NCBI GenBank assembly: GCA_001244265.2
Contig: CDLV01000007.1
Span: 1,984,001 to 2,048,000, forward strand
Source of the DNA: Microbotryum violaceum
Lineage: Eukaryota
DNA: 64,000 nucleotides
Direction: 5' to 3'
The notes beneath the pieces are model-generated. The model had not been told where the DNA came from. It made no database searches and was given only the letters and a program-made list of their open reading frames with translations. Below are positions 996 through 58,831 of this stretch, in pieces; position 1 is the stretch's first letter, and every line of letters begins with the position of its first letter. The position numbers and the translations under genes are program-made.

Positions 996-2419
996 TCAGC
1001 TCGACAGAGGCGCCTCAATCGTTGCGCGCACCGCTAGCCCGCCCCTTGCGGTGGGACTTAGGCGCGCGCGACTGCCTCAGCGAGCAGGCGCCAGCTGTGA
1101 GGAATCCACTCTCCGCTCGGCTCAGGACTTAGGCGCGCAGAGCAAGCCTGGCGCACCGGCCCAGGACTTAGGCGCGCAGGGCGAGCCTGGGCCATTGGCT
1201 CAGCCCCAAGGTTCGCAGCCTGAGGACGTGAGGCGCGCGGCTCTCTTGTTGTTAGCTTCCTATTCATCACTCCTGGCTATAACTACATTGCTGATGTAGT
1301 AGAGTTGATTGAATAGGTATGTTGTAATGATTCATCACTCTTGGCTATAACTACATTGCTGACGTAGTAGAGTTGATCGAATAGGTTATAAGCCCAACGA
1401 GCTACCAGCCCGCCGCTCGCTCGCATTTTTCCTCGAGCCCAGCCACTCGTGCCGCCCACGTCCATCGCACCATCGCACAATGGACAGTAGCGACCCCACC
1501 ACGCCTTCGTCCCCCAGGGACCCCAGCCTCTTGCGTCTTCGATCACCAATCAACTCGCTACCCTGCAGGCCCAGCTCGCCGCCCTGCAGGCCTCGCAGCC
1601 CCTGCCGCCACCGCCTCGCAGCCCCCTGCCGCCCCCGCCTCTGCTGCCACTGCCTCGCAGCCCACTGCCGCCGCCGCCGCCGCCACCACCGCATCAAAAG
1701 TCGTCTTTCCCAAGCACGCTCGCCTCGACGGCTCCAAGTCGTTCACGAACTGGTTACGCCAGCTCCGGCTCATGCTTCCGAATCAGATTCGTGGTTACGT
1801 CCTTGATGGAGTCGTTCCCCCGACGTGGACGGCCGACCAGCTGGCCGCTCGTGACGACGCCGCGCGGGAAATTATCGTCGGCTCGATCGACTCCGCCGAC
1901 ATCTCGGCAACCCTCGACGCCATCCCAAGCGACGACCTGTCGGCGCCACGCATCTTCACCGCTCTCAAGGCTCGTTTTGCACCGGACGATGCTACCCGCA
2001 CCCTCGAGTTGTTCGCCCGCCTTTGGGATTTCAGGAAGATGCCTGCCTCCGTCGAGGCATACGACACCTGGCTGCGCGAGTACATGTCCATCGTACAAGA
2101 AATTCGCGACGCCAAAACTTCACTCAACGACGTACTCGCCACTCACGTGCTTGCCATGGTCCCATCGTGCCTCGACAGCTTCCGACTCACGTTCACGGAC
2201 GAGCAACGCAACCAACGCGACCTTCCCGAGCTGACGACGCTGACCGACCGCATTTGCGTCCAACTTCGTTCGGCGGGGCTCTCCACCTCGCACTCGGCCA
2301 TGCTCGCTACCGCCTCCCCATGCCCCGCCTGCCGCACCCCCGGTCACCGCCTTCGTGACTGCACCTCACGCGCTCAACACCCCCCACCGGCCCCTGCCGT
2401 CGCTGCCACAAGAAGGGTC

Positions 2420-2534
2420 TATTAGGAGCAATATACCACTGCACCAAAAGGAGAGGCACCTCTACTTCAGGGAGCGCATATTGTCCTAGAAGTGAGATGG
2501 AGGGAGGTTCAACAGGGTCATACAAAAAAAAAAA
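2420..2534 (+). mobile_element. 115-bp poly(A)-tailed insertion (5'-truncated LINE/SINE-like) in the A1 gag zinc knuckle
   Basis: Absent from the homologous site in A2 (~42195); ends in A11; flanked by GTC/GTC. Confidence 0.7.
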
Positions 2535-3762
2535 GTCACTGGGCCCTCGACTGCAAACCGCGAAGCGACCAAAAACGAACCGGCGACGACAACCAGGACA
2601 ACACACCCTCATCGGCGGCTCAACAACCGAATGTTGGCTATTTCGCCTCCTGCCTGCTCGCTCGCCGCCATCTCCCGACCAACGCCTTCGTCGTCGATTC
2701 GGGCGCCACGACTCACATGGTCGCCGACCGCTCCCTGTTCACGACTTATCGTCCAACGGCACACACCAAGATTGGCGGCATTGCCGGCGGTGTCACGGCC
2801 ATTGGCATGGGGATGTACCGTTTGTTGCCAACACCGGACACCCGATCATGTTGCGCGGCGTTCTGCACGCGCCGGGCCTTCATGTCAACCTTCTCTCCGT
2901 CTCTCGCCTTTGTGACACCGACCGCGTTCGGCTTGCCTTCACCAGCGACGGCATCGACATCACCAAGGACGGCCAGGCCATCGCTCACGGTACACGGGTT
3001 AACGACGGTCTCTACCTCCTGGACGCGGACCACACCAAATGTCAGCAGCTTGCCTTTCTCTCACGCTCTGAGTCTACCGTGCCCCTACTTACCCTCCACC
3101 GCTGCCTCGGCCACCTTGCTCCATCCTCTATACAGAAGATGATCGCTGCGGGTTTGCTGGACGGGTTTGGGGCCGGGTACAGTGACAAAGACGTAGAAGA
3201 GTTTGTTTGCAATGCTTGCCTTGTTCCAAAGGCCATTGTCTTCCTTTTCCCGACTCGGAGTCACATTCCCCGAGAGACTTGGTCTCGTGCACAGCGATGT
3301 CCTGTCGTTTCCCACTCCGTCCTTGACCGGGAAACGCTATCTTGTCACCTTCCTTGACGACCACTCTCGCAAACTTTGGGCATACGCAATCGATCACAAA
3401 AGCGACGTCTTCCCGACCTTCCAGACTTGGCTCGCCGAAGTGGAGTTAGAAACGGACGCGCGTCTACGGATCCTCCGCACCGACAACGGCGGCGAATACC
3501 GATCCAACGCGTTCACGGAGTTCTGCCAGTCCAGGGCATTCGTCGCCAATACTCTATTCCATATACGCCTCAGCAAAACGGCCGTGCCAAACGTGTCAAC
3601 CTCTCCATCGTCGAGGGCGTCCTCGCCCTCCTTGCTGACTCCCACCTGCCGGCCACTTTTTGGGACGAAGCGGCTGCATACTTCGTTTATTGCAAAAACA
3701 GGTGCTCACACTCAGCTTTGGCCAAACAGACTCCACAATTCGTTTGGAACGGCCAACGCACC

Positions 3763-8701
<4,939 letters not shown>

Positions 8702-8981
8702 GCACCATGACCACCGCCCTTCACCCGTTCGGCTGCGCGGCCTGGCTCACGGTCGCGCCGGACCTTCGCAGCAAGCTCGACCCCAAGGCCGCGCGCGTGA
8801 TTTTTACTGGTTACGACCTCGCCTCCAAGGCTTTCCGGTTCTTCGACCATTCCACCAACAAGGTTGTGCTTGGCCGAAATGCCACCTTCCTCGACGACGA
8901 CTTCCCTGGCCTACCAGTCAACACGCCCGTCGATGCGGACAACGCCGAACGCCAGTTTGTCATTCCCGCCGACACGCAGGC

Positions 8982-9361
8982 TGTGACAAGTCCACTCTCA
9001 GCTCGGCAGAGGCGCCTCGGTCGGTGCGCGCACCGCTAGCCCGCCCCTTGCGCTGGGGACTTAGACGCGCGCAACTGACTCAGCGCGCCAGCGCCGGGTG
9101 GATCCGTGCGCGTGCCCACTAGGCCGCCCCCTTGCGGTGGGACTTAGGCGCGCGCGACTGCCTTAGCGCGCTAGCAACTTCACCGCGACTGGGCCTATCC
9201 CAGCGCGGGTCCCCTTTCTATTTCTTAGCTTCCCTCTCACCACTTCTGTTCAACAATCGACCTCTCCTGACAGTAGTGGTGATTGTCTCATAGGTATGCT
9301 GAAATAGACCACTTCTGTTCAACAATCGACCTCTCCTGACAGTAGTGGTGATTGTCTCATA
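8982..9361 (+). repeat. Solo LTR, family B (long form)
   Basis: TGTGACAAG...CTCATA with TSD CAGGC at 8977-8981 and 9362-9366. Confidence 0.95.
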
Positions 9362-12063
9362 CAGGCCCCCGCCGCCACACCCGCTCCCGCCGTCAAGACG
9401 AGGACCCCACTAGTAAGGTCGGCGCACATGGACGTCTCATCCCCTCTTGATGATTCTGCCATGAGCGCCGTTGACGTGGCCCAGGGTACACTGGCGGATC
9501 CTTACTTAATTCTACAGATACCAGCCCCTCGTCGTCTCCGTCGCTCGCCCCGATTTCGTCTCCCGCCCCGTCCTCAGGGGGGGTACCGTCCATCGAGGAC
9601 TCGGATGATCCGCTTGACCTTCTGCACTCCGACACCGCGGTTCGCCTCCGCCTGATGGACGTACATCGATCGACGACGACACCCTGGTCACACCCACACC
9701 CGCTGTTGGCCCCGGGCAGCCCTCGACAACGACTCCCCTGATGAGATCGATTTCCTCTCTCGTCATCACCGCGCCTTCATCGCCACCGACGACGACGACC
9801 CCACCCTCGAAGCCATTCAGCCGGTCAAATCGATCACTAGCGACCCTCAGACCTGGCGTGAAGCAATGTCCAGCGACGAGCACGACCTCTGGGCTCAAGC
9901 CGCCTCCGACGAGTTCACCGCCATGCGCGACAATTTCAAGGTGTTCACCATCAAGCCTCGTTCCTCGGTACCACCGGGCGCCACCATCGTCACCTCCAAA
10001 TTCGTCTGGAAGACCAAGCGCAATGCACAGGGTGATATCACAGGGCGGAAGGCACGCCTTGTCGCGCAGGGTAACCGCCAGCGCGACGGCATTGACTTCT
10101 CAGAGACGTTTGCACCGTCGCCCGTTTCTCCTCCATTCGCTGCCTCCTCGCCCTTGCTGCTGCCAACGGCTATCACGTTCATCAGGCTGACATTGACAAG
10201 GCTTACCTTCACGGCGAGCTCGATCACGACATCTGGATGACGACGCCACGAGGTTTTGACTTCCAAGCGACCAGGTTCTCCGGCTGCGGCGCTCGATCTA
10301 CGGTCTTAAGCAGGCCGGTCGCATCTGGAATCGCCACATTGACACATCGCTCAGGAGTCTTGGGTACACGGCAACGGGCACTGATCACTGCATTTACTCT
10401 CGCGTTGATGATCAGAAGCAGCCCCATTATATCGCATTATATGTCGACGATCTCCTCATTGTCAGCCCCGCCCTCGACGAGATTGAGCGTGTCATCTCCG
10501 GCCTCGAACAGCAATACGGCGTCAAACGACTCGGCCCTGCAGAATACATCCTCGGCATCCAGATTCGACGCCTGGAAGACGGCTCCATTGCTTTATCTCA
10601 GGAGCGCTACATCATGAACGTGCTCGCCCGCTTTCACTTTGACACCACAACGCGCGGCGCTACGGTGCCAATGACGCCCGGCCTCTCGCTCACGGCAGTA
10701 CCGGGTCAGGGAACGGACCGCATTTGGTCGTGGTACCTGCAAGCCATCGGCTCCCTCCTATACATTTCACTCGGCACTTGCCCCGACATTGCCTTTGCCG
10801 TCTCGTACCTGTCCCGGTTTGCCAACAACCCGGCCGCCGCCATTGGGTCGCCGTCAAACACGTCCTTCGCTACCTTCGTGCTACGTACCGTGATGAGCTA
10901 CTCTACGCCTGCGGTCCAGCCAAGATTACAGGGGTGGTTGGCTATTCCGATGCAAACTGGGGTGCCTGCGTTGACACGTCAATCTCCACAATGGGCTTCG
11001 TCTTTTACTTGGCCGGCTCCGCTGTCTCTTGGTCATCGAAGCGTCAGACTCGGGTAGCAGATTCCACCACTGATGCCGAATACCTCGCCTTGTCGCACGC
11101 TGGTAAGGAGGCCATTTACCTCACACAACTCCTCTCGAGCTCCATGTTCGCCCAATCGATGCAGCCCACATCTTCACGGACAACGAGGCCGCGGCCGCCG
11201 TCGCCCACGACCCCGTTCGCACCTCCGGCACTCGGCACATCCGTCTCCGCGAGCACTTCGTCCGCGACATGGTCAACCAAGGCGATATATCCCTCTCCCA
11301 CGTTGGCACAGCGAACATGGTTGCGGACCTATTCACCAAAGCGCTAGGTCCCAAGATTTTTGGTACGCATTGCTATGCTCTGGGCCTCCGGACGCAACAC
11401 CCACAGCTCAAGTCTACCTCGCGTTTGCGTGGGGGGGGGTGTGAGGAATCCACTCTCCGCTCGGCTCAGGACTTAGGCGCGCAGAGCGAGCCTGGCGCAC
11501 CGGCCCAGGACTTAGGCGCGCACTTGCCTGGCGCACCGGCCCAGGACTTAGGCGCGCGGAGCGAGCCAGGCGCACACAGCCCCAGGACTTAGGCGCGCAG
11601 GGTGAGCCTGGGCCATTGGCTCAGCCCCAAGGTTCGCAGCCTGAGGACGTGAGGCGCGCGGCTCTCTTGTTGTTAGCTTCCTATTCATCACTCTTGGCTA
11701 TAACTACATTGCTGACGTAGTAGAGTTGATCGAATAGGTATGTTGTAATGATTCATCACTCTTGGCTATAACTACATTGCTGACGTAGTAGAGTGGATCG
11801 AATACCAGCGGACTCGGGCGCGCGCCCGCTAGGCCACCCCCTTGCGGTGGGGACTTAGGCGCGCGCGCCTGCCTTAGCGCGCTAGCAACTTCACCCGCGA
11901 CTGGGCCTATCTCAGCGCGGGTCCCCTTTCTGTTTCTTAGCTTCCCTCTCACCACTTCTGTTCAACATTCAACCTCTCCTGACAGTAGTGGTGATCGTCT
12001 CATAGGTATGCTGAAATAGACCACTTCTGTTCAACATTCAACCTCTCCTGACAGTAGTGGTGA

Positions 12064-16606
<4,543 letters not shown>

Positions 16607-16921
16607 TGTGACAAGTCCACTCTCAGCTCGGCAGAGGCGCCTCGGTCGTTGCGCGCACCCGCTAGCCCGCCCCCCTGCGCTGGGGACTTAGACGCGCGCG
16701 ACTGACTCAGCGCGCCAGCGCCGGGTGGATCCGTGCGCGTGCCCACTAGGCCGCCCCCTTGCGGTGGGGACTTAGGCGCGCGCGACTGCCTTAGTGCGCT
16801 AGCAACTTCACCCGCAACTGGGCCTATCTCAGCGCGGGTCCCCTTTCTGTTTCTTAGCTTCCCTCTCACCACTTCTGTTCAACAACCAACCTCTCCTGAC
16901 AGTAGTGGTGATCGTCTCATA

Positions 16922-19826
<2,905 letters not shown>

Positions 19827-19928
19827 TGATGATGTCACGCCTGCTCAAGCGGTGGTAAGTCTCTGATCGAAGGACCAAGGGAGACCAGACCAAGAAGTTG
19901 CTTCTTACACACCTGCTCAAGCGGTGGT

Positions 19929-20300
19929 TATGAGACAATCACCACTACTGTCAGGAGAGGTTGATTGTTGAACAGAAGTGGTCTATTTCAGCATACCTAT
20001 GAGACAATCACCACTACTGTCAGGAGAGGTTGATTGTTGAACAGAAGTGGTGAGAGGGAAGCTAAGAAACAGAAAGGGGGCCCGCACTGGGGTGAAATCG
20101 CTAGGGCGCTGAGGCAGCTGCGCGCGTCTAAGTCGCCACCTCAAGGGGGCGGCCTAGCGGCGCGCGCGCCCGAGTCCGCTGGCGCCTGCTCGCTGAGGCC
20201 GTCGCGCGCGCCTAAGTCCCCACTGCAAGGGGGCGGGCTAGCGGGTGCGCGCGACGACCGAGGCGCCTCTGTCGAGCTGAGAGTGGACTGACTCTTCACA
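19929..20300 (-). repeat. Solo LTR, family B (long form), inside the C2 3' LTR
   Basis: TSD GTGGT at 19924-19928 and 20301-20305. Confidence 0.95.
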
Positions 20301-20726
20301 GTGGTAAGTCTCTGATCGAAGGACCAAGGGAGACCAGACCAAGAAGTTGCTTGTTACACACCTGCTCAAGCACTACAGTAAGTTACCACATCTAGAGGGG
20401 TGAAAGATGATAGGAAGAGTAGTGCTCACCTGCTCAAGCGGTGGTAAGTCTCTGATCGAAGGACCAAGGGAGACCAGACCAAGAAGTTGCTTGAGCAGGA
20501 GAGAAACCAGAGTGGGGCCATTTGGCTGGGCCCAAGTCAGCCCAGCCAAAGTCAGGCGCACGGACCTGGCCCAGGTGCAGAGACCAGGCCCAGAGTGGGA
20601 GAGCTAAGGTGGTGAAAAGTAGGCCAAAAGTGATCAAAACGAAGAGAGGAGGATGTTGAGGTAGGTACAAGATACAAGAAGGACATGAAGGAGATATTTG
20701 ATCTCACACCCCCCCTACTTCGAGTA

Positions 20727-23700
20727 TCAGGGAGCACAGATACCGAGTCGACCGCGGTGCCGAGCAAAGAGGTCGCGTGACAATGCTTTGGTGAAGATGT
20801 CCGCTGTCATCTCACCAGTGTTGATGTACTGGACGACAATGTCGCCCATGGAAACCATATCCCGGACGAAGTGTTTGCGCAGGCGGATGTGCCGAGTCCG
20901 AGCATGAAATACCGGATTCTTGGTGAGAGCATTGGTGCCTTGGTTGACGCCGTAGATGAGGACGGGCTTTGAAGACGAAAGGCCAAGCTCACCAAAGAGC
21001 TGACGCAGAAAGATTGCCTCCTTACCAGCGTGTGACAGTGCGAGGTACTCGGCGTCACAAGTGGAGTCGGCAACGCGCGATTGAAGCCGGGAGGACCATG
21101 AGACGGCAGCACCTGCATAGACGAAAGTGTAACCCATGGTCGACTTGGAAGAGAGGACGCATGCACCCCAGTTGCAGTCGGAGTAGCCCAAGAGCGGTGC
21201 CGGATTCCCACGAGCGTAGCGTAAGCCGTGAGAAAGAGTGCCAGCGAGGTAACGGAAGGCGTGTTTGACAGCTCCCCAAGCAGCAGCGGAAGGCGAGTGA
21301 GAGAAGCGAGCCAAGTAACCGACGGTGTAAGCCAGGTCGGGCCGAGTACCAGTGGACGCGTACATAAGGGAACCAATGGCCTGCAGGTACCGAGTGCGAT
21401 CCGGGAATGGGGTGGGCTGCAGCTCGACTTCGAGGCGGAGATTGGGCTGCATGGGCGTGGCGACGGGATGGGCATCGGACATTCCAAATCGGGCAAGGAC
21501 GTCCTTGAGGTATTGTTCCTGACTCAGAGAGATGGAACCGTCTGGAGAGCGCCGGATCTGGATGCCGAGGACGTATTCTGCCTCACCGAGCCGTTTGACA
21601 CCATAGCGCTGCTCAAGACCCTGAAGGGTACGCTCAATCTCAGGGAGAGAGGGGCTGATCATGAGCAGGTCGTCGACATAGAGCGCAATGTAGTGGTGCA
21701 CATCACCCGTTGTCCTGACGTAGACGCAGTGGTCGGATTCGGTGGCAACGTAGCCGAGTGCGGACAAGGCAGAGTCAATCTCGTCGTTCCAGATGCGACC
21801 GGCCTGGCGCAAACCATAGAGGGACCGATGCAGTTGGAGGACCTTGCCTGGCATGTAGATGCCATCAGGCACACGAATGTACAGGGGTGCGTCGAGTTTG
21901 CCGTGCAGGTAGGCTTTGTCGATGTTGGCCTGGTGGACGTGGTACCCATGAGCAGCAGCAAGAGCCAGGAGTGCGCGGATGGAGGTGAATTTGGCCACGG
22001 GTGCAAAGGTCTCGTCAAAGTCAATGCCAGAGCGTTGGGAGTCACCACGAGCAACGAGACGGCCCTTGTAGGACTTGACTTGGCCATGCTGGTCGCGTTT
22101 GGTGCGGAAGACAAAGCGGGAGCCCAGGACCTTGGCGTCTGCTGGGACAAGGGACTCGTCAATCGGTGTGAACGCCGAAAAATCTCGCAAGAGTGAGTCA
22201 AACTCGTTGCGGGCCGCAAGACGCCATTCATCCGCTTGAGGAGTGGCCATGGCCGCTCGCCAGTGAGGTGGGTCGCGAGCGGGGGCAATCAGTTCCGCAG
22301 GGTCGGCGGGCGAGGTCTCAATGAGGGCGGCAGCGCCAGAGGCAAGGTAGGCCACGGCAGAGGGTGAGTGGAGTGCGTCATCCACGTCGTCGGGAAACTC
22401 CTGCGCCTGGCATAGCGAAGCAACATCGCGTGGGCGTGGCAGGAGATCGATCGGGTCCGGGGAGTCGGACCGAGCGGGTGAGGGTGGCGCTGGCAACGCA
22501 CGGGAGGCCACGGGGCGCGGGGAAGGACAAGGCGTGGAGATGGCCGAGTCAGAGCTACCTTGGTCAGAGGCGCTTGATGCAGGTGATTCCGGGTCAGGGA
22601 GCTCACGAGCAGGGGAGCCTTGGTCAGGGGCAGGGGGTGCGAGCGAGTCCTGGTCAGGGACCTCGCAGGCAGGGGCGGGACGGTGCGGGCCCTGGTCAGG
22701 GGCTGCCGGCACGGGTCGAGGTGGCTCAGCGCGAGGCGCAAGTGAGCGAGGGGAAGCAACGAGCGAAGGCTCAAGGGGGTCTACCTGGTCAGGGTATGCG
22801 TCAACAGTGACGGGGAGTGGGATTGGTTCAGCGCGAACGTCGGTGGCTGGCCGGAGTGCAGGGAACTCGGATTCACGGAAGACAACATTGCGGCTGAGTT
22901 GTATCCTGCGCGTGGACGGCTCGAAGAGTCGGAAAGCCTTGGCATGGTGGTCAAAACCAACGAACAGGAGGGGTACAGCCTTGGGGTCGAGGTCCGTGCG
23001 CTTGGCCGAGGGAAGGTGGTGCCAAGCGCGGCAGCCAAATGCGCGAAGGGTGGAGATGTCAGGCGCAAAGCCATGCCAACGAGCGTCGGGGATCTCACCA
23101 CCAATGCCGGCGTGAGGCATCAGGTTTTTGCAGTGCACATAGTACAAAGCGGCCTCACCCCAGAGGCGTGAATCAGCGCCAGAGGAGTAGAGCAGAGCAA
23201 GGATACCCTCCTTGATGGTGCGATTGCTGCGCTCAACACGCCCATTTTGTTGGGGTGTGTAAGGGATAGTGAGTTCCCGACGAATGCCTTTGCTTGCACA
23301 GAAGTCAACGAAGTTGCCCAGAGTAAACTCGCCTCCATTGTCAGAGCGGATGGTCTTCACCTTGTTGCCGGTGGCATTCTTGACTTCAAGGATCCAGTCG
23401 CAAAGGCGAGGGAAGACGTCACTTTTGAGTGCCAGGAGGATACACCAGTGCTTGCGAGAGAAGTCATCAATGATGACCAGCATGTACCGATGTCCACCAA
23501 ATGTAGGGCGAGGCATTTGCGCTACATCGACGTGGAGGAGATCCAGACGGCCAGAGGGGATGGACTTGGACCGGGCAAAGGGGAGGGCATGCGCTTTGGA
23601 AGCGAGAGAAGCATTGCAGTAAAAATCCCGGAGCTCCTGATCCTTATACACCCAATCCACCCCAGTAACCAAGCCTTTCTGCACAATGTTTTTGATTTGC

Positions 23701-25059
23701 GCAACGGGCAAGTGCGCGAGGCGACGGTGCAGAGTCAGCAAGGACACTTTGGTAGGGATGGCGAGGAGGGCTTTGGGCGTACAGGGTGTAGGTCCAAGTG
23801 CCAAGGCGTACAGGTTGTTCCCAATGGCTTGAGCGGTAGCAACGACGGCACCCAAGGGACGGGCGATGCTTGCACAACGAGATGCGAAGGAGACGCGGTA
23901 GCCAAGTTGATCCAACTGGAAGACGGACAGCAGGTTGCATGGGAGATCCGGTACCAGGAGGACATTGGACACGGTGATCGGACCCGTTGAAGTCTGGATG
24001 CAAATGGTGCCGCAGCCGGTGGAAGGGAGGGAGCCGGCGACGCCTCCAACTCGTGGGCCTGCGACCGTGCGAAGCTCGGAAAAAAGGCCCCTGTCGTTCG
24101 TCATATGGCAATTAGCGCCCGAGTCAAGGAGCCAAGCCGATTTGCGAAATGGCGAAGGTGTTGCGAGGAGACAGGCCGTGAACGACACAGAGTTGGGTGT
24201 GTCCACTGCGGCTGGTGACGCGACTGGCTGGGAGGCCTTCTTCTCGGCGGTGCGACGAGCTCGGTAGGCGGCGGCCCAGGCGGTGTCGAGGCATTCCGGA
24301 GCCAGTGCAACTTGCGACAAGACGGATTTGGGCACGGCTTTGAACAGCCGTGGCGGGACTGCGGGGTGGCGACGGCGGCAACAGGAGTATCGACGGGGCG
24401 GGCTTTGACATCGCGGTAAAGGCGCGTGAAGATCTCGGTGGCGGAGGGCATCGCAGTGGAATCGCCCTGGTCAGCAACGAAGGTGGTGCGCCAGGCGTCA
24501 AAGGACGAAGGAAGGCGAGCAAGCAAGTGCGAGGCGAGAAGGGCGTTCACGGTGACCTGCGAGTCCTGCAGCAGCCGGGCGTCGTTTTCGAAACTGTCGC
24601 GGAATTGCAGGAACAGGTCGGGAGTGACGGGCACAGGGTCGGAGCTGAAGAGGTGTTGGATGACCGGTAGCAGATCGACAGCAGAGACGGTGCCGTAGCG
24701 TTCGCGAAGTGCCTGCCAGACCTTGGGTGCTGCGAGTGATTCGTCGAGGTAAGGTGACAGGCCCGGGAGGACAGTTTGCGAATCAACGGAGGCGCAAATG
24801 GAGGAGCAGGCGTAGTGGTCCCAGAGAGGGACATACGAAGCAGGCCAAGACTCGAGTGGTACGCCCGTGTTGAGGTAACGGACGACGCCGGAGGCAGGCG
24901 TGAACGGATGGCGAGGACCCAGTCTCGGTAGCCGGACGAATTGCGAAGCAGCTCGGTCGTTGCGAAGGCCGCAGAGTGGGTGGGCGGGCGCAAGGGCGGC
25001 GCATCGGGCGTGGGCTCGCGGAGCTTGGCTTCAGGCGCGGAGGCGCCGGCGTCGGACAT
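20727..25059 (-). CDS. Copia C2 Gag-Pol; pol intact (1202-aa ORF), gag with a few 1-nt frameshifts
   Basis: LLDSGA protease, IRSDNGGEF/PQQNGRVER integrase, LYVDDLL RT and RNase H; gag ATG at 25059. Confidence 0.85.
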
Positions 25060-27126
25060 GTTGCGAAGGGTGAAAAAGTAGAGCGAAGGGCGGGCACGGA
25101 GGTGGCCGCACTGGTAGCTCGGTTGGGCTAATAACCTGTGATGTTGTCACGCCTGCTCAAGCGGTGGTAAGTCTCTGATCGAAGGACCAAGGGAGACCAG
25201 ACCAAGAAGTTGCTTTTTACACACCTGCTCAAGCGGTGGTAAGTCTCTGATTGAAGGACCAAGGGAGACCAGACCAAGAAGTTGCTTTTTACACACCTGC
25301 TCAAGCACTACAGTAAGTTACCACATCTAGAGGGGTGAAAGATGATAGGAAGAGTAGTGCTCACCTGCTCAAGCGGTGGTAAGTCTCTGATCGAAGGACC
25401 AAGGGAGACCAGACCAAGAAGTTGCTTGAGCAGGAGAGAAACCAGAGTGGGGCCATTTGGCTGGGCCCAAGTCAGCCCAGCCAAAGTCAGGCGCACGGAC
25501 CTGGCCCAGGTGCAGAGACCAGGCCCAGAGTGGGAGAGCTAAGGTGGTGAAAAGTAGGCCAAAAGTGATCAAAACGAAGAGAGGAGGATGTTGAGGTAGG
25601 TACAAGATACAAGAAGGACATGAAGGAGATATTTGATCTCACAGCGTCAACAATACTCTATCCCTCGCACGCCTCAACAATACGGTCGGGCGGAGCGGGT
25701 CAATCGTTCCATTGTTGAAGGCATTCTTGCCCTTCTGGCGGACGCCCATCTACCCAAGACATTCTGGGAGGAGGCTGCGGCTTACTTCGTTTACTGCAAG
25801 AACCTGGTTCAACACTCGGCTCTCAACAAGGCAACACCAAACTTGGTCTGGCAGGGCGGACGCACCACAGCCTCCGCGCTTCACCCATTCGGCTGCACAG
25901 CTTGGCTCACGGTCGCGCCCGAACTTCGCTCGAAACTCGACCCCAAGGCGGTTCGCGTTCTCTTCACCGGCTACGACCTGGCTTCCAAAGCCTTCCGTTT
26001 CTACGACACAACGACCAAGAAGATCATTTTGGGCAGAAATGCCAGCTTCCTCGACACTGAATTCCCCGGTTTACTTGGCGACTCCACCGAGGAAGACGCC
26101 GACACGCACTTCGCCAGCGCTCCCATTGCCGAACCTCAAGACACTGTCAAGACATGGACCCCACTAGTAAGGTCGGCGCACATGGACGTCTCATCCCCTC
26201 TTGATGATTCTACCATGAGCGCCGTTGACGTGGCCCCAGGGTACACTGGCGGAACCTTGCTTAATTCTACAGATGCCGAATCGTCCTCATCACCGTCTCC
26301 TGAGCCGCCCTCGTCGCCGTCGCCTGCGCTCTCGACTGCGCCCTCACCGTCATTCCCTGCGTCACCGTCACCCTCGGCCTTGCCAAACGACTCTGAATAC
26401 TCCGCGGATCCTCTCGACCTCATCAGCTCACAGCCCCAGGTTCGCCTCGACCCACCGGGCGTGCATCGCCCCGACTTCGGCAAGTACCGCGAGCCCGCAT
26501 CGGCTGAGGAGTCGCCCGACGAACTCGACCTCATTGGGCGCCACTCTCGTGACGAATCGCCGGACGAAATCGATTTCCTCACCCGACACCACCGCACTTT
26601 CATCGCGACCGACGACGACACCTCTGACACTGAGGCCATCCAGCCAGTCAAGTCCATCACAAGCGACCCACAGACCTGGCGCGAGGCAATGTCGAGCGAC
26701 AAAAGTGAAGTGTGGGCCAGGGCCGCCGATGACGAGTTCAATTCCATGCGCGACGACTTCAAGGTTTTCACCATCGAGGACCGCTCTACGGTACCCACCA
26801 GCGCGACCATCGTCACGTCCAAGTTCGTCTGGAAAACGAAACGGAACGCACTCGGCGAAATCACTGGACACAAGGCACGGTTGGTAGCGCAAGGAAATCG
26901 GCAACGGGACGGCATTGACTTCAACGAAACCTTCGCCCCGGTCGCCCAATTCTCCTCGATACGCTCACTCCTCGCGCTGGCGGCCGCCAACGGCTTGCAC
27001 GTACACCAAGCGGACATCGACAAAGCCTACCTTCACGGCGACCTCGATCACAACATCTGGATGACGGCACCGCGCGGCTTCGACCTTCCAGCGACAAGGT
27101 GCTTCGGCTGCGACGCTCCATCTACG

Positions 27127-32148
<5,022 letters not shown>

Positions 32149-41800: not shown

Positions 41801-43423
41801 AGCCGAACGCGGTCGGTGTCACAAAGGCGAGAGACGGAGAGAAGGTTGACGTGAAGGCCCGGCGCATGCAGAACGCCGCGCAACGTGATCGGGTGTCCGG
41901 TGTTGGCAACAAACGCTACATCCCCCATACCAATGGCCGTGATACCGCCGGCAATGCCGCCAATCTTGGTGTGTGCCGTTGGACGATAAGTCGTGAACAG
42001 GGAGCGGTCGGCGACCATGTGAGTCGTTGCGCCCAAGTCGACTACGAAGGCGTTGGTCGGGAGTTGGCGGCGGGCAAATAGGCAGGAGGCAACATATCCG
42101 ATGTTCGGTCAGTGAGCCGTGGAAGAAGACAAGTCGTCCTGGGTGTCGTCGCTGGTACGTGTCTGTTGGCCCCGGTTCTTGCAGTCGAGGGCCCAGTGAC
42201 CTCGCTTTTGGCAGCGGCGGCAGGGGCCGGTGGGCGGATGCTTTGCACGTGAAGTGCAGTCGCGCAGGCGGTGGCCGGGGCGCGGCAGGTGGGGCAAGAG
42301 GGGGCGTCGGCGAGCATGGCCAAATGCGAGGCCGAGAGGCCGGCGGATCGGAGCTGAACGCGGATACGGTCCGTTAAGGTCGTGAGCTCCGGGAGTTCGC
42401 GCTGGGCGCGCTGCTCGTCCGTGAACGTTAGCCGGAAGCTGTCTAGGCAGGACGGTACCATGGCGAGGATGTGGGTGGCGAGGACGTCGTTCAGCAATGT
42501 CTTGGCGTCGCGAATCTCTTGAGCAATGGCCATGTATTCTCGCAGCCAGGTGTCATAGGCCTCGACCGAGGCGGGCATCTTCCGAAAGTCCCAAAGGCGG
42601 GCGAATAATTTGAGGGTGCGAGTGGCGTCGTTCGGTGCGAAACAAGCTTTGAGTGCGGCGAAGATGCGTGGCGCCGACAGGTCGTCGCTTGGGATGGCGT
42701 CGAGGGTTGCTGAGACGTCGGCGGAGTCGATCGAGCCGACAATAATTTCCCGCGCGGCGTTGTCACGAGCGGCCAGCTGGTCGGCCGTCCACGTTGGGGG
42801 AACGACTCCATCAAGGACGTAACCACGAATCTGATTCGGAAGCGTGAGCCGGAGCTGGCGTAACCAGTTCGTGAACGACTTGGAGCCGTCTAGGCGAGCG
42901 TGCTTGGGAAAGACGACTTTTGATGCGGTGGTGGCGGCGGCGGCGGCGGCAGTGGGCTGCGAGGCAGCGGCGGCAGAGGCGGTGGCGGCAGGGGGCTGCG
43001 AGGCAGCGGCGGCAGGGTGCTGCGAGGCCTGCAGAGCGGCGAGCTGGGCCTGCAGGGTAGCGAGTTGATCGCTGATCGAAGACGCAAGAGGGCTGGGGTC
43101 CCTGGGGGACGAAGGCGTGGTGGGGTCGCTACTGTCCATTGTGCGATGGTGCGATGGACGTGGGCGGCTCGAGTGGCTGGGCTCGAAGAAAAATGCGAGC
43201 AAGCGGCGGGCTGGTAGCTCGTTGGGCTTATAACCTATTCGATCAACTCTACTACGTCAGCGATGTAGTTCTAGCCAAGAGTGATGAATAGGAAGCTAAC
43301 AGTGTGAGAGCCGCGCGCCCCAAGTTTCCCAGGCTCGCTCCGCGCGCCTAAGCCCTGGGCCGGTGTGCCTGGCTCGATCCGCGCGCCTAAGTCCTGAGCC
43401 GAGCGGAGAGTGGATTCCTCACA
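38850..43423 (-). mobile_element. Copia element A2, 3'-truncated in RNase H (5' LTR 43236-43423, short form)
   Basis: PBS GGTTATAAGCCC next to 43235; gag ATG at 43139; PR, IN, RT and partial RNase H ORFs. Confidence 0.9.
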
Positions 43424-45718
43424 AGAAGTGGCCAAGCTGGTTCTCCTGGCACCAATCCGGAACTCTGCCGGATCCTCCGCACCCACATGGTCTCGTTGCT
43501 GGCTGGCTGGTTGGACCTCTCCCTCGAGAAGCTTGCCCTCGACGCTCCGGTGGTCCCTACCAGTCCGGAGGCCGCTGAGGTTTTTAGTGACGCACACACG
43601 GACCAACCTCTCGAGTTCGATTACCAAGTCTTTGAGAGGATTGGTCGCGAGGAATGGAGCGTCATTGCGCAGCGACGCCAAGCCATTGCGACCCAGGCAG
43701 TGTGCTACAACAGCGCCCCACGTACTCGCGACCCGCTGCAGCCTTGGCTGCACCCCACGTTGCGACAGCTGCTACCGGCCATTCCCCGATCACGGGTGGC
43801 CCCCGCCCCGTTGCCCGACTCACCGTCGACGAGCGCGCGTACCTGGACCAGAACCACGGATGCTATCGCTGCCGCACTCTCAACGCCAACCACATCTTGC
43901 GCAACTGCCCCCGCTACTTGTCACCCATGGGAGCGTCCGCCACTCCGTCGACGCCAACGTTGACCGCTCCTGCGCCTCGCCCCGGGCCCCGTATGGTGGC
44001 GGCCATTCGGACCTTCCAAGAAACTGGCGATTCAACCGTGTTCGACGGCCTCAGCAGCGACTCGGAGGACGACAACGATCCTTCGTACACACCGCATCCC
44101 TTTCCCCCTTACCCGTCTCCCTAGCCGGCGCTCATGGTACTCTCCTTGCCTCCGCCCTAGTCAATTTGGGATCGCCTCAAACATTTCTCAGTGAGGAGCT
44201 TGTTCAGCGACTGGGTTTGGAACGGCGCGCCCTGGAACAGCATTCGAAGTACACCCTTGCAATGCAAACCCAAGTCCCCACTGTCTTCACCTGCACGCAC
44301 TTTGTTCGAGTCCCGCTCGAGCTGGCCAATGGGCTCTGGGCCGCAGGACCGACGTACGCCGAGGTAGCGCCCCTTGGGAAGGACCTTGCAATCATCTTGG
44401 GAGGCAACTTCATCTATCGGCACAAGATGGAGGTCGGCCTCTTCCCTCAGCCACACCTCACCTGCAAAGCCAACCCCATACACGCTATAGACCTGCTGGC
44501 GCTGTCGTCCCAGCCGTGCACTGCCGTGCGGGTTGCCGCAATTGCTCCGGTTTCTGACGACGAGGAGCAGCTCCGCCTTGCCGCGCTTGACCATCGCCTT
44601 CGAGCGGAGTTTGCCGACCGTTTTCCTGTGGATATCCCGCCTGTACACTCGTACCAATCCCGGTGCGACACCGTATTGAGCTTGACACTCTGTCCACTGT
44701 TGTCAACCTTCAAGGATACTCCCTCCCGAAGAAGTATCGCGAGGCATGGTACTTACTACTACAGGAACATCTTGCGGCCGGTCGCCTCCGCCCCTCTTGG
44801 TCGGCATACTCGTCACCCTCGTTCATCATCCCAAAGAAGGGCCGACGTGGATCCCACGATCGCCCCGCGCTGGGTGAACGACTACCGCGAGCTCAACAAG
44901 CACACCATCAAAGACCGCACGCCTCTGCCCTTGATGGACAACATTCTCTCAACATGCTCCAATGCGCAATTCTGGGCCAAGATTGACATGACCAACTCCT
45001 TCTTTCAGACCAAGATGGCGGAGGAAGACAGCCATAAGACGGCCGTGTCCACACCTTGGGGTTTGTACGAATGGACCGTCATGCCCATGGGCCTCTGCAA
45101 TGCCCCTGCCACCCACCAACAACGTGTCAACAAGGCGCTCCAAGGCCTGCTTGGCACCATCTGCTTCGTCTACCTCGACGACATCACCATCTTTGCGGAT
45201 ACACTGGAGGAGCACGAGGCCCGTGTTCGCCAAGTCCTGGATGCGCTGCGCCGTGCCAAACTCTATTGCTCGCCAACCAAAACCAACCTTGCCACTGCGG
45301 AGTGCTTGTTCCTTGGCCACATCATCAACCGAGCCGGAGTACATCATTGAAGACATTGTTGACGAGAGGATCCGTGCTGGCAAGCAGCAATACCTCATCT
45401 CGTGGCTCTCATGGCCATCAGACAGCAATTCATGGGAGCCTGCCGAGGCACTGGAGGATACGGAGGCATTGAATAGGTGGGAGCGTCGGAACGAGTAGGA
45501 TTTTTGACCGGAGGAGGGGATTTGTTTCAAGGCGGGGAGAGTGTAAGGCGCGCGCCTTACTACGGGCCACAGGGATTAGAAATAGAGATCGCGCGCACCT
45601 AGCTTCTTCAGTTCCCTCCCCATTGGGCTGACACCAGAAGCTAGTTGCAATCCATATAGCTTGCACCTGTCAGCTAGGTCGCCAGTGAGGCTCGAGAGCA
45701 ATCTCGTGCCTTTCAACA
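43424..45718 (+). mobile_element. Degenerate chromodomain Ty3/gypsy (chromovirus) remnant: gag 3' end, PR, partial RT, chromodomain, PPT and probable 3' LTR
   Basis: CYRC...H...C knuckle; PRWVNDYRELN, MPMGLCNAP and YLDD RT motifs; chromodomain YIIEDIVDER...YLISW...SWEPAEAL (45336-45498); purine tract then TGTAAGG at 45542; LTR end ...CAACA at 45718 is tentative. Confidence 0.85.
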
Positions 45719-47497
45719 TGGCTCGCATCGGAACGCGACCGCGTATGAGTGCTCTTCGATGGCCGCTCTCACTGTCACTGTCACTGTCGCTGTCGCTGAC
45801 GCTGTCATCAGCCAAGGATTGACCGGAATCACCCAAATTGGGCTCGTCAGAGTCGGAGTTGGACAAAAGGGTTTGGGGCACGGGCATGCGCCGCTTTCTC
45901 TTCCGAGTTGGGCGTGGAGACAGTTCATACAGAATTGTACTGGCTTGTGAGGATGCTCAACGGCTTTGGTCGTCCCTCCGACCTGCAAGAGGTGTGAGAG
46001 AACGTACTGGCTTGTGAGGAGGCGCTTCCGGTCATACCCACTCCACTCTCCTACGCTCTCGTTTATGCTTACCGCTGCGTCCGCAATGTCTGTTCTTACA
46101 TACCCTGGGTGTGTCAAACGTGCTCAGAATCGGATCAGTCAAAATCGCAATCCATCACCAAACTTGCCGCTCAACTCTGGAACTTCCTGAGAGACCAGGA
46201 GGACCTCGGATCTGCCCAACTTGGCGAGGACAACAAATAGTTTGTTTGCACGGCTTTTGCAGCGGCAGAGGCAGGAAATAATACGACTTTCACTTCGATA
46301 GTACCGCCCACCATCATCACACGGTCACCATCCGACATTCCTTCCCCAACTCTGATGGAGCAATGCAAAAAGTACATTGCAGAGTTGCGAAACCTGGCGC
46401 AACGCATGTCCAAGCTGTACGATGTGGAAACCCTGGCCTTTATTGTCCCTCGTGATCAAGACAACGTGTCGCCAGCGACGAACGCGACCGTCCATTCGAT
46501 AGGTGGGCTCAGATTTGCAGCTCACTGAAACAACTTCAAGGATCCATCCGGCAATTCCTTGTTGCCTAATTTTGCTTTCAAGATGAGCTGGGATGAGACA
46601 CTCAAGGCCAATGAACCGGCAGATCTGAAAGAGGGAGCCTCTTACTTTGGGCATGGGTGACTATGACTTTCTGCAGTTCGACTGTTGAAACGCAAGCACC
46701 CGTGACGACGTACTTTGTGTCGAGATTACAGTGAGCGTGTGAACTGCGCAGGAAGGAATTGCGACAAAGCAGTACGCTTGCTCTTAGCAACTTAGCAAAG
46801 AGTCCATTAATGTGCCACCAATGTACAATTCATTATATCATACAGAAAAAGACTGTTAGGGGTGATCAACTTCTGTTCCTTGCGTCTGAAAAGTCATCAA
46901 CCAAGTGCCAAGGCAAACACTCAACAGACCTGGTTGAGTGTGAGGCTCGGAGTGGCCATGGCAACACCACAGAAGACCTTTGTACAACATTGGGACTGTG
47001 AGCCAGATCAGGACTTTGTTCAAGTATACATCAAAATGTAGTCGGCAGTGTTGGGATATAATAAGTACTTTTGCAATCCCTGCTGACTGTTGGGGAACTG
47101 TCACCCAAGGCATGACACGGACTGCGCATGTGACTGACTGGCAGGGAGCGCGGTAAGTTCTACCTGTAGGAGATCTCAGTGCAGCCAGCGCAGCAAAGGT
47201 GCAATGGACGCTTGTGTTCACTCCCTCAGTGTAGCGCGCTCCTCCTCTAAACCTTACCGGTCGTGTTGGGCTTCCGGCTACCAGCTTTACTCGAGCGAAA
47301 TTGAACTTTTCAAGCGAGCCACCGCAAGATCGAGCGATTTAGCGAGGCCGGGTCTTGGATGTCTGATTGCTCTTGTTGCACTTCCTGGCAAAGTGTCGTA
47401 TAACGTGTAGAACTACTAGCGAAATGAACGCTTCATTGATCTCTTGACTATTTCAAGTAGCAACTGGGCAAAAGACTGCAACTATATATGATCAATC

Positions 47498-50400
47498 TCA
47501 AATTCCCCAAAAAACATCGCCATTGTCTTCATCAAAGTTTTCGATGATCTTGTCACTGAAGGCGCTGTAATTGGTAGTGTCGACGGAATGATGACTCAGA
47601 TCATCGCTCAAATGATCACTGATGTCAAGAAAGGTGTCATGATCCGTGGTGATGTTGTCCGACTCTCCGACCCTCCCATCATTGAATGCAGTCTGGCCAT
47701 GTGTGATCCGGCAAGCCACCCATTGTGGTTCGTTGAAAAACATCAACGTCGTTGGTGCACCACATTTGAAGCTCGACCCACTCCTTTATTTGCGGTTTAC
47801 CGGTTTGCCGGGTGCATTCCCACAGGTGATCTAGGCCGCCCTTCGAAAACCATCGGCGCGCAATAGTTCTAAGACGCTCTTCTTCTTGCTCGAGCAACAT
47901 CATCGCAGAGTCATCCTGCTCATCTAGTTGGTGTAATTGCTGGCGAACTTGCTGAAACTTTTTACGACGGCTTATCAGCCACCGTCCAATGCGACGCACT
48001 TCCCATCCTATTTGCTTGATCATTTGCTAGCATCTTGCGCAAGACCATACTGCTGGAATGACAACACAAACATCATCATCGTCGTAGGCCCAGGGCTCAG
48101 TGGGATGACTATATAATCCGTTGTTCCAGAGCGGCGCCAAGATGTCGAGTCTGAGCAGTTCGTTGAGATCCTCTGGGGCTGATGGCGGTACCCTTCGGGT
48201 TCTCAAGATCGAATGGGAATTCTGAGAATTGGCGAGGATGGCGGCATACTTTTTCACCTCGTCGTTATACATCGCCACTGCCTTCATGAGTCTTGGACGC
48301 AAATAATTAAAATTCACGACCAGGAGACCAGCCGCTTTTGTACCTATGAGCAGGCATTGCTACACATCAGCGTTCCTTCTGCCGGTGCAGAAGACTCGTA
48401 CCGAGGGCTTTACTGCCTAGGCGCGGGAGCCGCAGCCTTTCAGCTCCCTGTCAATATTGTACGACCAAGTCCCACAGCGAGCGAAATGCGACCATCAATG
48501 TGCAGGCAAATTCATTGCCTGGGCCAATGAAAGGTGTTGACATATTTAAGCGAGGACAAAGGGGATCACACCAGAGGATCACAATGGAAGAAGGGAGTGA
48601 TGTACCAGGGTCCAGGACACTGATGTTTATTTCCGGCGTGCGTAAGGAGGTCAGTTGATCATCAAGAACCTGCCCTTGTTTGACCAGCTGTTGAATTTTA
48701 GTCGACTGTTCCATAAGCTTGTTTGTATCTATGGTGTTCACGTAGGGTAGTTCTTCTCTGTAGAAATCGAAAAATGAAGACCGAAGTTAGGTTACCGGTT
48801 CGTGTCTCACTCCCAAACGACGACGATAGGTCAGACCCACCAGCTTGCTGCGATGTCTCTGTTAGTTAGCAAAGCTTGAACATGACGTTGCGTAACTCTT
48901 TGCGCTGCTCTTTCAGAGGGATCTGCTTGGATGCTGCACGTTGCGCGTGTCATTGTTCAAGGAGGGTAGCGACCGTCCATTCCGAGCAATTAACGACCTT
49001 AGCAATGACTCTGTCGGCTTCGGCCTTGAGCTTATTGCGTTTTTGAGTCGAGAATTAGGTTTGGTCACTGGGCATGATCGATACGCCAAGATCAGCGACA
49101 TGGTAAGGTAGTGCATGGAAGACCGGAAGCTTAGGCGAACCAAGATTGGTCAAATGCTGCTTGTTATAAGCAGACGCTTGACGATTGTGTTCTCCAGCGA
49201 GGCACTCGATGATTGATTCATGGGTATCATGCCTCGAAGCTGCGACCACAAGCGCTCGGTTCCCTCGCCATCAGTCAAACCAAAATTGGGTAGAAAGCGC
49301 GGATCAAAGTCAATCTGGCAGGACCACTTATGCGCATAGGCATGCATCGACGAGAGAGCAAATTCTAGACGCGGTAAGTGATCTGCCAGAAGATTGCGCT
49401 GCGCATACCGGGGAGAGATGAGTTGCTCAGCTACGAACTAAGCCAACGTCAGGCTGAGTGTCACAAACAAACTCACACAGCGTAAGTGCGACGATAATTT
49501 GCAGGCAATATCATACGCAACTCCAACGCGACTTCGATCCTGACTCAAACTTTGGTGGGAGCCCGATCCCGAGCTGGATCTGACGTTTGTAGCGTCACTG
49601 GTATGCGCAGGCCCCATAGTACAATCCGTTTCTCCAACTTCAACTTCTTCAAGAATCCATTTCAACAGCGACACGGGATATACTAACCTGCGGCAGACCA
49701 AATTCGCTTAGTAGTGTCCTTGCCTGGAGTCACAGATGGCCGGTCCACACATACTTTTCACCTGATTGATGCAGGTTGCAAAGTTGCAGGCAATGGTCAA
49801 GACGGCACACTGCAGCAATGAGGCCTGTGTTGGCCACTACATTTGACAAAGCGGAGGTCACACCACCATCTGCGGCCTTCCAGTTCGCTGTGCATTTGTC
49901 CTATATGATAGAATAGCCCGTTTAGCAATCACAGACAGTCGGGTCAACGCATTATTGGGTTCGGGTGACCCAACACCAGCAGCACCAAGGTACCTGCTTG
50001 CCCGCTTCAGTCGATCCGTCGATCAAAGCTTGCTCGTTTCGAATCTTGTCTGGTGACAGGAATAACGCTGGACGTGACTTGAGAGGATCATCATTTGCCC
50101 GGGCGAATCATCGATGCTGAAAATTGCCTTCGACAGCAATGATGACATCAAGGTCATTCTCGCTCTTGCCGGCTTCATCAATCCGAGGCCCAAAACATGC
50201 CGGACAAACGTCGGCCAGACGCTCGCGCGGGGAGAGGCCAAGGAGTCCGGCGGTCAAAGTTGCCTGCAGCTGTTGCATAAATCGATATTCATCCATTGCG
50301 GCTCGAATATGCTGACACACGGCTGGACCCTGGGAAGCATCCAATATTTTCTGTAAGCAACAGTGAATGTTACCGGCCTGTCCCTGTCCTAGAGCCCACC

Positions 50401-51686: not shown

Positions 51687-52314
51687 GCTTGAAGCGATGG
51701 GTGCAAGCCTGCAAGGCCTTGGGTGGAGGGAAGTGGGGGGACTCGTGGTGCTGAGGCAGATGGACCATTAGCGGGGATAAGTAGCAAGTGCCCCGATTAG
51801 TGACCACTTTTGCCTCCGGGGGCTGGGCCGGCTGGGTGTTGGCAGGGGAATGGTGCACCTAGCCCGTACCAACGTTATCCTGGGCCAAATCTCCAAAAAG
51901 CTTCCTCAACTCCCCGCGCGCGGTGTAGTATATTTGTTAGGCTTATCTTGACCCGCATAGGTGCTCGGGGCAGGACCTGCACAGGCTGGCAGCCGGTTGC
52001 AGCCGGCAGGACCTGGCAGCTGGACTAAAGGATTTGACTCATAGCGCGCGCGACCGCGGTTAAGCCACATTGGGCCGAAAGAGCCGACAGATATCGACAG
52101 ATGCTTCCCTCCCTTATACCGCGGTTTACTACTCAATAACATCATCACTTTTTAAGCACCAATTCTGCCATGTTGTATCTTCATGAGCGCCCCAGTGCGC
52201 AGGACCTTCACAGTCGCCACTCGGCGGGCAGTCCTATATCGATCGACCCGTATCATTTGATCGCGAGGAAGCCATGGAACATCGCAAAGGTTAAAATACA
52301 GCGCCATCTATTTC

Positions 52315-53640: not shown

Positions 53641-53938
53641 GTTGGGCTATCCGAAGACCTCTTCTGACGATTTTCGCTAAAACCGAGGTGATGAATACTT
53701 GCTGTCTGGGCAAAGGGAGTACAAGAGCAAGAGCTTCGACTGACCAGCGCGAACTCGACGTTCAATCGGTCTCACAAGTCCACCCTAGTCCATCCAAGCT
53801 CGGGCCTCCTCTTTACAAGCGATCTCAGCAGACCACTCCCTTCTTTGTGCCCGTCTAATCAATGATAGCCGAAAATCGCGTATTTGGATTTCATGATGCT
53901 ATAACACAGAAGCTCGATCGCCCAAACATGCTCCCACT

Positions 53939-56790: not shown

Positions 56791-56836
56791 TACCCATTTA
56801 CCCGCAGTTCATGAATCGCGGCCCACGGCATTCGGT

Positions 56837-58534
<1,698 letters not shown>

Positions 58535-58831
58535 GGCACCATGAGTGTCAATTCACCAGTTAGGCAATGACCGTCTCGAGTTTTCCGTGAGCGTGTGTAG
58601 CCATCTAGCTTGTATATTATGTCAATGGAGATCCTGCATTGCAAACATGGTTCACCCGAGGGTACAACGCACTCCGAAGGCGCAAATTCTTGTTCAATTT
58701 TTAACCTTAGGGCAGGGCGTAGATACACTACAACAGAGTCCCGCGCCTCCGGAAATGAGGAAGCGGTATGCGACGACATGCTTCATCAATTCTAGGACAC
58801 TCTTAACAAGCACTGTACAACCGGCGTGGCG

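Follow-up and report, generated by a model that had tools for sequence, protein, structure and literature searches.

A tandem array of predicted hairpin modules at the U5 end of a Microbotryum copia LTR, with intron-like borders most likely produced by repeat phasing

The long terminal repeat (LTR) of a Ty1/copia retrotransposon, here called family C, ends in a run of short units bordered by GT...AG. It lies in the stretch of Microbotryum violaceum DNA analyzed here, 64,000 nucleotides in all and referred to as the window. The first-pass annotation of this DNA described the units as back-to-back introns of the kind removed by recursive splicing. Our analysis indicates that the feature is probably a tandem array of a U5 hairpin module in which copy-choice or slippage adds and removes units. 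Its GT...AG borders most likely follow from the phasing of the repeat through a joint that reads A/GGT. This reading is carried by the array itself, by the many equivalent registers in which its units can be lost, by a design shared with two other LTR families (A and B), and by paired LTRs that carry unequal numbers of repeats.

The array is read on the minus strand, from 25436 down to 25137. It opens with a founding unit (unit0, 72 nt, 25365-25436), in which the arms CCTGCTCAAGC (5′, 25434-25424) and GCTTGAGCAGG (3′, 25374-25364) pair. An odd unit of 68 nt follows (25297-25364, GTGAGC...GAGCAG), and then two units of 72 nt, unit 2 (25225-25296) and unit 3 (25153-25224), both of the form GTGTGT...GAGCAG. 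The LTR closes with a 16-nt tail, GCGTGACAACATCACA (25137-25152), the U5 terminus and att end, and a putative primer-binding site (PBS) lies directly after it at 25109-25136, starting with GGTTATTAGCCCA at 25136. Each added unit has GTG first and GCTTGAGCAG last, with ACTTAC 10-12 nt ahead of GCTTGAGCAG. In these respects the first-pass annotation was exact: its unit bounds, its lengths of 68, 72 and 72 nt, and its placing of ACTTAC in every unit all agree with the minus-strand reading. Over 87 nt, units 2 and 3 have 97.7% identity, and the final 64 nt of unit 3 are identical to unit0. Tandem Repeats Finder reports the region 25148-25427 with a period of 72, 3.9 copies, 71% matches and a score of 314. 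The family C units form a head-to-tail tandem-repeat array.

The odd unit has in common with the 72-nt units only the GTG start and the ACTTAC...GCTTGAGCAG end. Reading its sequence reveals an inverted repeat of its own, AGCACTAC/GTAGTGCT. Descent from a 72-nt unit by divergence is unsupported for its core, as 1038 of 2000 shuffled sequences align with the regular 72-nt core equally well. A search of the rest of the 64-kb window found no donor for this core or for the family A joint described below. The unrelated core counts against an array reading, and so does the nature of what the odd unit shares with its neighbors, namely the positions of a would-be 5′ site, branch point and 3′ site.

Four public runs (X2, X15, X17 and X19), all fragmented contigs, were compared at 90% likeness. 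The odd unit is present entire, together with both neighboring unit edges, in contigs of X2, X15 and X17, which are differently coded organisms, with one other letter in each. A diverged form occurs in the fourth run. The contigs of all four runs hold no joints, and 31-letter words are blind to the short and long forms, unit0 and unit 3 having 64 nt in common. Contig depths for the odd unit, U3 and internal sequence are of the same order in these runs, although such depths are not copy numbers. A metagenome scan with a 24-nt unit motif gave 0 matches, and an Rfam search of 24900-25700 gave two matches only, both at chance level (E 0.49 and 0.75).

The element that carries the array is a complete Ty1/copia element, with a TG...CA LTR pair, a 5-bp target-site duplication (TSD), integrase upstream of an RVT_2-type reverse transcriptase (RT), a PBS and a polypurine tract. 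Its 5′ LTR (25137-25643, minus strand) is a long form of 507 nt. Its 3′ LTR (19825-20708, minus strand) is also long and has the same four-unit layout, split at 19929-20300 by a family A solo LTR with a TSD of its own, ACCAC. The TSD GACGC stands on both sides of the C element. Between the two LTRs, 4 of 507 positions differ, and these lie without exception in the repeat or tail region. The pol open reading frame between them (20727-24335, minus strand) encodes 1202 aa with integrase before RT, the copia order, and matches the Pfam families Pol_BBD, rve (residues 265-361), SH3_retrovirus and RVT_2 (residues 730-963, E 4e-59). Its best relatives are Microbotryum silenes-dioicae proteins, 92-98% identical. 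A polypurine G-run is found just before the LTR starts at 20708, 31854 and 18895.

Two further family C copies are truncated, one at 16921-19169 and one, with an internal deletion, at 29901-32148. Both end in short LTRs. The short LTR at 31854-32148 (plus strand), a 3′ LTR after a G-run polypurine tract, consists at its U5 end of unit0 and the tail. The short 3′ LTR at 18895-19169 (plus strand) belongs to a diverged subfamily whose U3 is 87.5% identical. A 5′ LTR fragment at 29901-30005 (plus strand) comprises the last part of a unit, then a 72-nt unit and the tail, and the PBS comes next. Near-identical copies are densely nested across the window in both orientations, and a nearby stretch of 1811 nt, in inverted orientation, is 100% identical. 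In the part of the window from 44 to 64 kb, a homologue search with one open reading frame found no match, and 9 of 10 long open reading frames lacked a credible Pfam family (eight without a match, one with a below-cutoff match to Dsh_C).

The long and short forms are related by a simple subtraction. When 25153-25364 (212 nt) is taken out of the 507-nt LTR, the remaining 295 nt match the LTR at 31854-32148 with one mismatch, at LTR position 137, in U3. The LTR ending at 19169 is identical to the same product over its last 78 nt. The first-pass annotation had proposed that removing the 212 nt yields the short C LTR ends at 19169 and 32148, and this is borne out.

What that subtraction says about mechanism is another matter. 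Sliding the deletion along the long LTR gives 65 registers that lead to an identical short product, and GT...AG borders the deletion in only one of them. Unit 3 and unit0 have 64 nt in common and the 65 registers are equal, so exact excision is what any tandem repeat would show. A single 72-nt unit can be lost in 55 registers and the 68-nt unit in 14, again with one GT...AG register in each case. Loss of an intron should be placeable only at splice sites, and the 65 registers of the 212-nt loss do not have this property. At the AGGT frequency of the window, a unit of 68-72 nt contains AGGT on a given strand with a probability of 0.23-0.25. The GT...AG phasing of the family C units is therefore no more than chance, and the copies differ by whole units, with a breakpoint that is undefined inside the shared homology. 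Losses that fall on CAG/GT boundaries, which had been put forward as a mark of splicing, lose that meaning when one of 65 equal registers has them. The proposal of back-to-back introns removed by recursive splicing drew no support from the tests run and, given the register ambiguity, is not needed.

Families A and B repeat the design. The end of the long family A LTR consists of a 53-nt unit, the joint GGTATGCTGAAATAGA, the unit again and then the PBS, GGTTATTCGCCCA. Short family A LTRs end after the first unit, exactly at ...CATA. The long family B LTR has the joint GGTATGTTGTAATGA between two units, with a 68-nt period. The extra module (69 nt in A, 68 nt in B) places GGTATG right after the LTR-end motif, ...CATA or ...AATA, and the joint thus starts with GGT where the PBS (GGTTAT) starts after the last unit. 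Since GGT of the joint is placed like GGT of the PBS, the AG/GT of these families is the terminal A of the LTR followed by GGT. The family C joint reads ...GAGCA/GGTGTG. A PBS starting GGTTAT directly after the LTR end is common to all three families, and all 8 of the 8 PBS-like matches to GGTTATNNGCCCA in the window lie directly after an LTR end. Families A and B match C in having 68-72 nt of the U5 end duplicated, with a PBS of one type immediately following. The first-pass annotation had noted a common design in these families, and its inference of a shared mechanism from the same design in unrelated LTR families is upheld by the duplications in all three.

We also considered the joint as a second, alternative PBS, and rejected this idea because the joint has no likeness to the PBS past GGT. 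ARAGORN found no tRNA genes in the 64-kb window. One LTR variant from run X2 (a loose end at 25219, other strand) has GTGTGT running straight into sequence resembling the LTR tail plus PBS. GTGTGT can therefore start the tail as well as a unit.

Repeat number varies widely among the LTRs. The window holds 19 LTR copies (five of C, ten of A and four of B), 11 of them long and 8 short. Long forms make up 6 of 8 5′ LTRs versus 2 of 8 3′ LTRs (Fisher one-sided p 0.066, by hand calculation and with copies that are not all independent). TSDs were verified for three elements and two solo LTRs. The C element (GACGC) has a long/long pair. So does the B element at 1096-11804 (plus strand, TSD CCAGC), in which the 5′ LTR (1096-1383) has two U5 units around GGTATGTTGTAATGA and the 3′ LTR (11440-11804) has 77 nt more of a 36-40-nt repeat. 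In the A element at 8701-3763 (minus strand, GGTGC on both sides), the 5′ LTR (8403-8701) is long, with two U5 units around GGTATGCTGAAATAGA and one copy of an 82-84-nt repeat, and the 3′ LTR (3763-4074) is short, with one U5 unit and two copies of that repeat. Paired LTRs of single TSD-flanked insertions are thus unequal in repeat number at three different arrays. The 82-nt repeat difference within the A element offers GT...AG in 0 of 3 registers and the 77-nt B difference in 0 of 20, on either strand. Repeats without any GT...AG register also vary between paired LTRs, so repeat number changes without need of splice sites.

The repeated segment is a predicted hairpin. In the RNA fold of the short C LTR (-40.7 kcal/mol, z -3.06, with 1 of 200 shuffles as good), the unit0 hairpin is closed by an 11-bp stem of CCUGCUCAAGC with GCUUGAGCAGG. 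The short forms of the other families also have a predicted U5 hairpin beside the PBS, with z of -2.90 in A and -2.13 in B. In the long C form, the 5′ arm is predicted to pair with the last 3′ arm and the array to be looped out (z -3.41). The LTR ending at 19169 differs from the 295-nt form in 35 columns. All 35 fall between positions 1 and 217 of the 295, and the final 78 positions are free of differences, so the module is kept, or exchanged, as a block. Such a hairpin next to the PBS may have a role in priming, strand transfer, packaging or expression.

Taken as a mechanism, the repeating module would be a hairpin-forming segment of about 60 nt just upstream of the LTR terminus and PBS, plus a joint of 9-16 nt. 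Arrays would be built and resized when reverse transcriptase switches templates between modules of the RNA leader or of the cDNA, with slippage or unequal exchange in DNA as a probable added route. Switches backward and forward between two packaged RNAs could expand and shrink the array and keep its units alike. The outcome would be long LTRs, with up to unit0, the odd unit and two further units, and short LTRs with unit0 alone. Every module joint reads A/GGT, like the LTR-end/PBS junction (CA or TA, then GGTTAT), and because the joints read A/GGT, phasing through AGGT yields GT...AG. If a unit were deleted while minus-strand strong-stop DNA was being made, and the product then moved to the other RNA, pairs with a long 5′ and a short 3′ LTR could result. 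The lean of long forms toward 5′ LTRs (6/8 versus 2/8) would be accounted for by this proposed strong-stop deletion, and it stands among the points against the array reading. We infer that reverse transcriptase is the main agent of array change, and long forms may persist because extra hairpin modules help the element.

Work on retroviruses gives this mechanism a precedent. In the available text of PMC3187697, retroviral direct repeats are unstable and are precisely deleted by template switching, both when RNA is being copied and when DNA is. The rate of deletion there rises with repeat length and identity, and deletion is rare below about 82% identity. The array fits this pattern, with near-identical 72-nt units open to gain and loss and a dissimilar odd unit that would seldom pair with them.

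The chief alternative is that the units are short spliceosomal introns located in the 5′ leader, which arose when a segment containing AGGT was tandemly duplicated. Splicing would proceed stepwise through the regenerated CAG/GT or in one 212-nt step, and reverse transcription of the spliced RNA would give the short LTRs. We regard this as unlikely, although a good deal of the sequence is compatible with it. The GT...AG borders and the unit lengths of 68-72 nt are confirmed, and such lengths suit fungal introns. The borders hold for all three C units and for the B unit, whereas the A unit has them solely when the first PBS nucleotide, G, is counted in. The joints look like good fungal splice sites. 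All have the form GT-R-N-G (GTGAG and GTGTG in C, GTATG in A and B), with 3′ ends of CAG or TAG. The purine at +3 and G at +5 have a chance of about 0.15 per independent joint by rough arithmetic. As candidate branch motifs, C has CTTAC 15 nt before CAG, and A and B have CTGAC 22-23 nt before TAG, and the restriction of the odd unit's likeness to signal positions is also what an intron would be expected to have. By the established scheme of reverse transcription, genomic RNA necessarily includes whatever lies between R and the PBS. The units lie in that interval, so they are present in genomic RNA and exposed to the spliceosome. Functional introns that arose by duplication of an AGGT segment are described in the accessible text of two papers (PMC3265369, PMC4974935). 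The part of PMC7175516 available to us likewise records a cryptic intron within Tf2 and, in Cryptococcus, RNAi that is coupled to the spliceosome and acts on transposon RNAs that splice poorly.

Several observations weigh against introns. The exactness of the excision is uninformative, given that 1 of 65 registers is GT...AG, and AG/GT is already accounted for by the LTR end plus GGT. The near identity of units 2 and 3 requires duplication, and splicing cannot create such repeats. A spliced template would give two short LTRs, so the short 3′ LTR of the A element at 8701-3763 cannot have come from one, and the long-5′/short-3′ pair of this single insertion is left unexplained. Efficient splicing and copying predicts that short LTRs should prevail, yet 11 of 19 are long here. 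The branch-like CTTAC of family C departs from CTRAY, the fungal branch-point consensus, the comparison of splice sites being with the fungal consensus and not with that of this organism. Finally, the 5′ site of the first added unit sits inside the 11-bp stem of the predicted fold.

The intron idea can be extended to all three copia families. Each would have turned a duplicated U5 hairpin into a leader intron by way of the A/GGT of the LTR-end/PBS junction, both leader forms would have been copied into long and short LTRs, and C would have three abutting introns with zero-length exons. In this fuller form we consider it a shade more doubtful.

A different view is that the size differences arose only after integration, through slippage, unequal crossing-over or gene conversion, with no role for reverse transcription and no function for the module. 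Such processes would explain why paired LTRs of TSD-flanked insertions are unequal at three arrays and why the differences within the C LTR pair fall 4 of 4 times in the repeat or tail region, and the dense nest of near-identical copies in both orientations would favor them. However, independent insertions, and solo LTRs that each have a TSD, show the same long architecture and joint sequence, and the odd unit is found in contigs of three differently coded organisms. The arrays were thus inherited through transposition and are not local products. The U5 module is also more conserved than U3, and purely post-integration change is quite improbable. An assembly artefact, with the repeat mis-expanded or collapsed, is most improbable of all: tandem repeats in multi-copy elements are error-prone to assemble and the nearby 1811-nt inverted stretch of 100% identity is unusually perfect, but both LTRs of the C element have four units and yet differ at 4 positions, and X2, X15 and X17 each contain the odd unit with both neighboring unit edges and one other letter.

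An array resized by copy-choice or slippage has clear relatives. Like the direct repeats of retroviruses and LTR retrotransposons, it is a block within the LTR that undergoes precise, homology-dependent deletion and varies in copy number among copies and between paired LTRs. Enhancer repeats in LTRs are unstable in the same way, as the consulted portion of PMC3187697 reports. The classic LTR repeats are U3 enhancers, whereas the array described here occupies the U5 terminus, in contact with both the att end and the PBS, and has a predicted hairpin module as its block. Drosophila copia has size variants of the LTR-ULR. In the text of PMC3442997 at hand, the term 'LTR-ULR' is mentioned in passing.

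The intron systems are similar in form. As in introns formed by AGGT duplication, a duplicated unit is bounded by GT...AG and its removal restores the sequence before duplication (PMC3265369 and PMC4974935, in their available text). Those introns are in protein-coding genes and their splicing was demonstrated, as far as the available text goes, while the C units are in a retrotransposon leader, vary in number and are known from DNA alone. As in recursive splicing and in stwintrons, a 3′ site abuts a 5′ site (CAG/GT, at the 2 internal joints), and taking out one unit would create a donor anew. Known cases of recursive splicing are in very long introns. The C units, in contrast, are 68-72 nt, and the whole array is 212 nt only. 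Fungal stwintrons, as presented in the portion of PMC12403724 available, are nested, whereas the C units are serial. With respect to priming, Ty5 uses a 3′ end made by cleavage of the initiator tRNA in its anticodon loop, according to the part of PMC5371799 available to us. The putative PBS GGTTAT, located right after the LTR end at 8 of 8 sites in three families, resembles this Ty5/copia type of priming by internally cut initiator tRNA-Met when compared by sequence type. In the main texts of the literature searched, there was no paper on leader or LTR introns, or on U5-end tandem arrays, in Microbotryum elements.

If the units are indeed ordinary tandem repeats, the family C LTR is a worked example of a trap, in which any tandem repeat with an AGGT in it can pass for an intron that has been cleanly lost. 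In LTR retrotransposons with a PBS that opens with GGT, this AGGT comes at no cost from the junction of LTR end and PBS, so that presence or absence of GT...AG segments in LTRs should not be taken as splicing unless RNA shows it. In this anther-smut-like genome, three copia families multiply a predicted hairpin beside the PBS. Unequal repeats in paired LTRs also bear on the dating of insertions by LTR divergence and on the annotation of transposable elements in repeat-rich, possibly non-recombining regions. If, instead, the units are introns, a rare birth of introns by duplication would have been caught in a mobile element, and this would bear on the control of basidiomycete transposons by spliceosome-coupled RNAi.

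The Ty1/copia LTR families A and B share a duplication at the U5 end (69 nt in A, 68 nt in B), and the PBS adjoining it is of the same type in both. The LTRs considered for this duplication lie at 8403-8701, 3763-4074, 8982-9361, 19929-20300, 27127-27509, 1096-1383, 11440-11804 and 43236-43423. The joint, the short sequence GGTATGYTGWAATRGA between units, shows about 80% similarity across the two families, but within either family the two copies of the unit are nearly identical. This pattern in the sequences suggests concerted evolution of the U5 array of A and B. An exact 38-nt tandem duplication at 942-1016 covers the extreme start (TGTGAAG...) of an LTR of family A, so terminus-spanning LTR duplications also occur at the U3 end.

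In the family C array, GCUUGAGC (minus strand, 25153-25374) is self-complementary if G-U pairs are allowed, and the ends of neighbouring C units can therefore pair, closing each unit as a loop. The ACTTAC of the C units is the complement of GTAAGT, which places a consensus-like 5′ splice motif on the plus strand in every unit. The letters ACTTAC are also found at the 5′ end of U1 snRNA.

In the full C element, the paired LTRs are free of differences over their first 355 nt, and all four of their differences (25144, 25216, 25252 and 25288) fall inside the last 152 nt, comprising the repeat and tail. Three of the four are in units, two at the joint A-run and one in a unit body. The internally deleted C element at 29901-32148, in which the last 1.8 kb is joined to the PBS region, is 100% identical over 1811 nt to the full element (20710-22520), which lies 7.5 kb away in inverted orientation. 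The deleted element has a truncated 5′ LTR, and at the truncation, homology to the host element extends to 29904; this 4-nt overlap suggests a microhomology junction.

All three C copies are nested in copies of another repeated element, each at a different position (related sites at 25644-25720, 29403-29479, 13964-14040 and 6640-6716). Throughout the left 44 kb of the window, LTR elements of either orientation are nested within one another in several layers. From 44000 to 64000, G+C is lower (0.49-0.57 versus about 0.59-0.61), and nine of the ten long stop-to-stop frames there have no credible Pfam family: eight had no match at all and one had only a below-cutoff match to Dsh_C. The tenth, at 43398-45350, matches RVT_1 (gypsy-like RT). 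No tRNA genes were found anywhere in the 64-kb window.

Among the 19 LTRs of families C, A and B in the window, the long form, with more than one U5 unit, occurs in 6/8 5′ LTRs versus 2/8 3′ LTRs, and in both solo LTRs. The 5′ versus 3′ lean (Fisher's one-sided p = 0.066, calculated by hand on non-independent copies) may reflect chance among such copies. Alternatively, it may be a trace of array resizing during reverse transcription.
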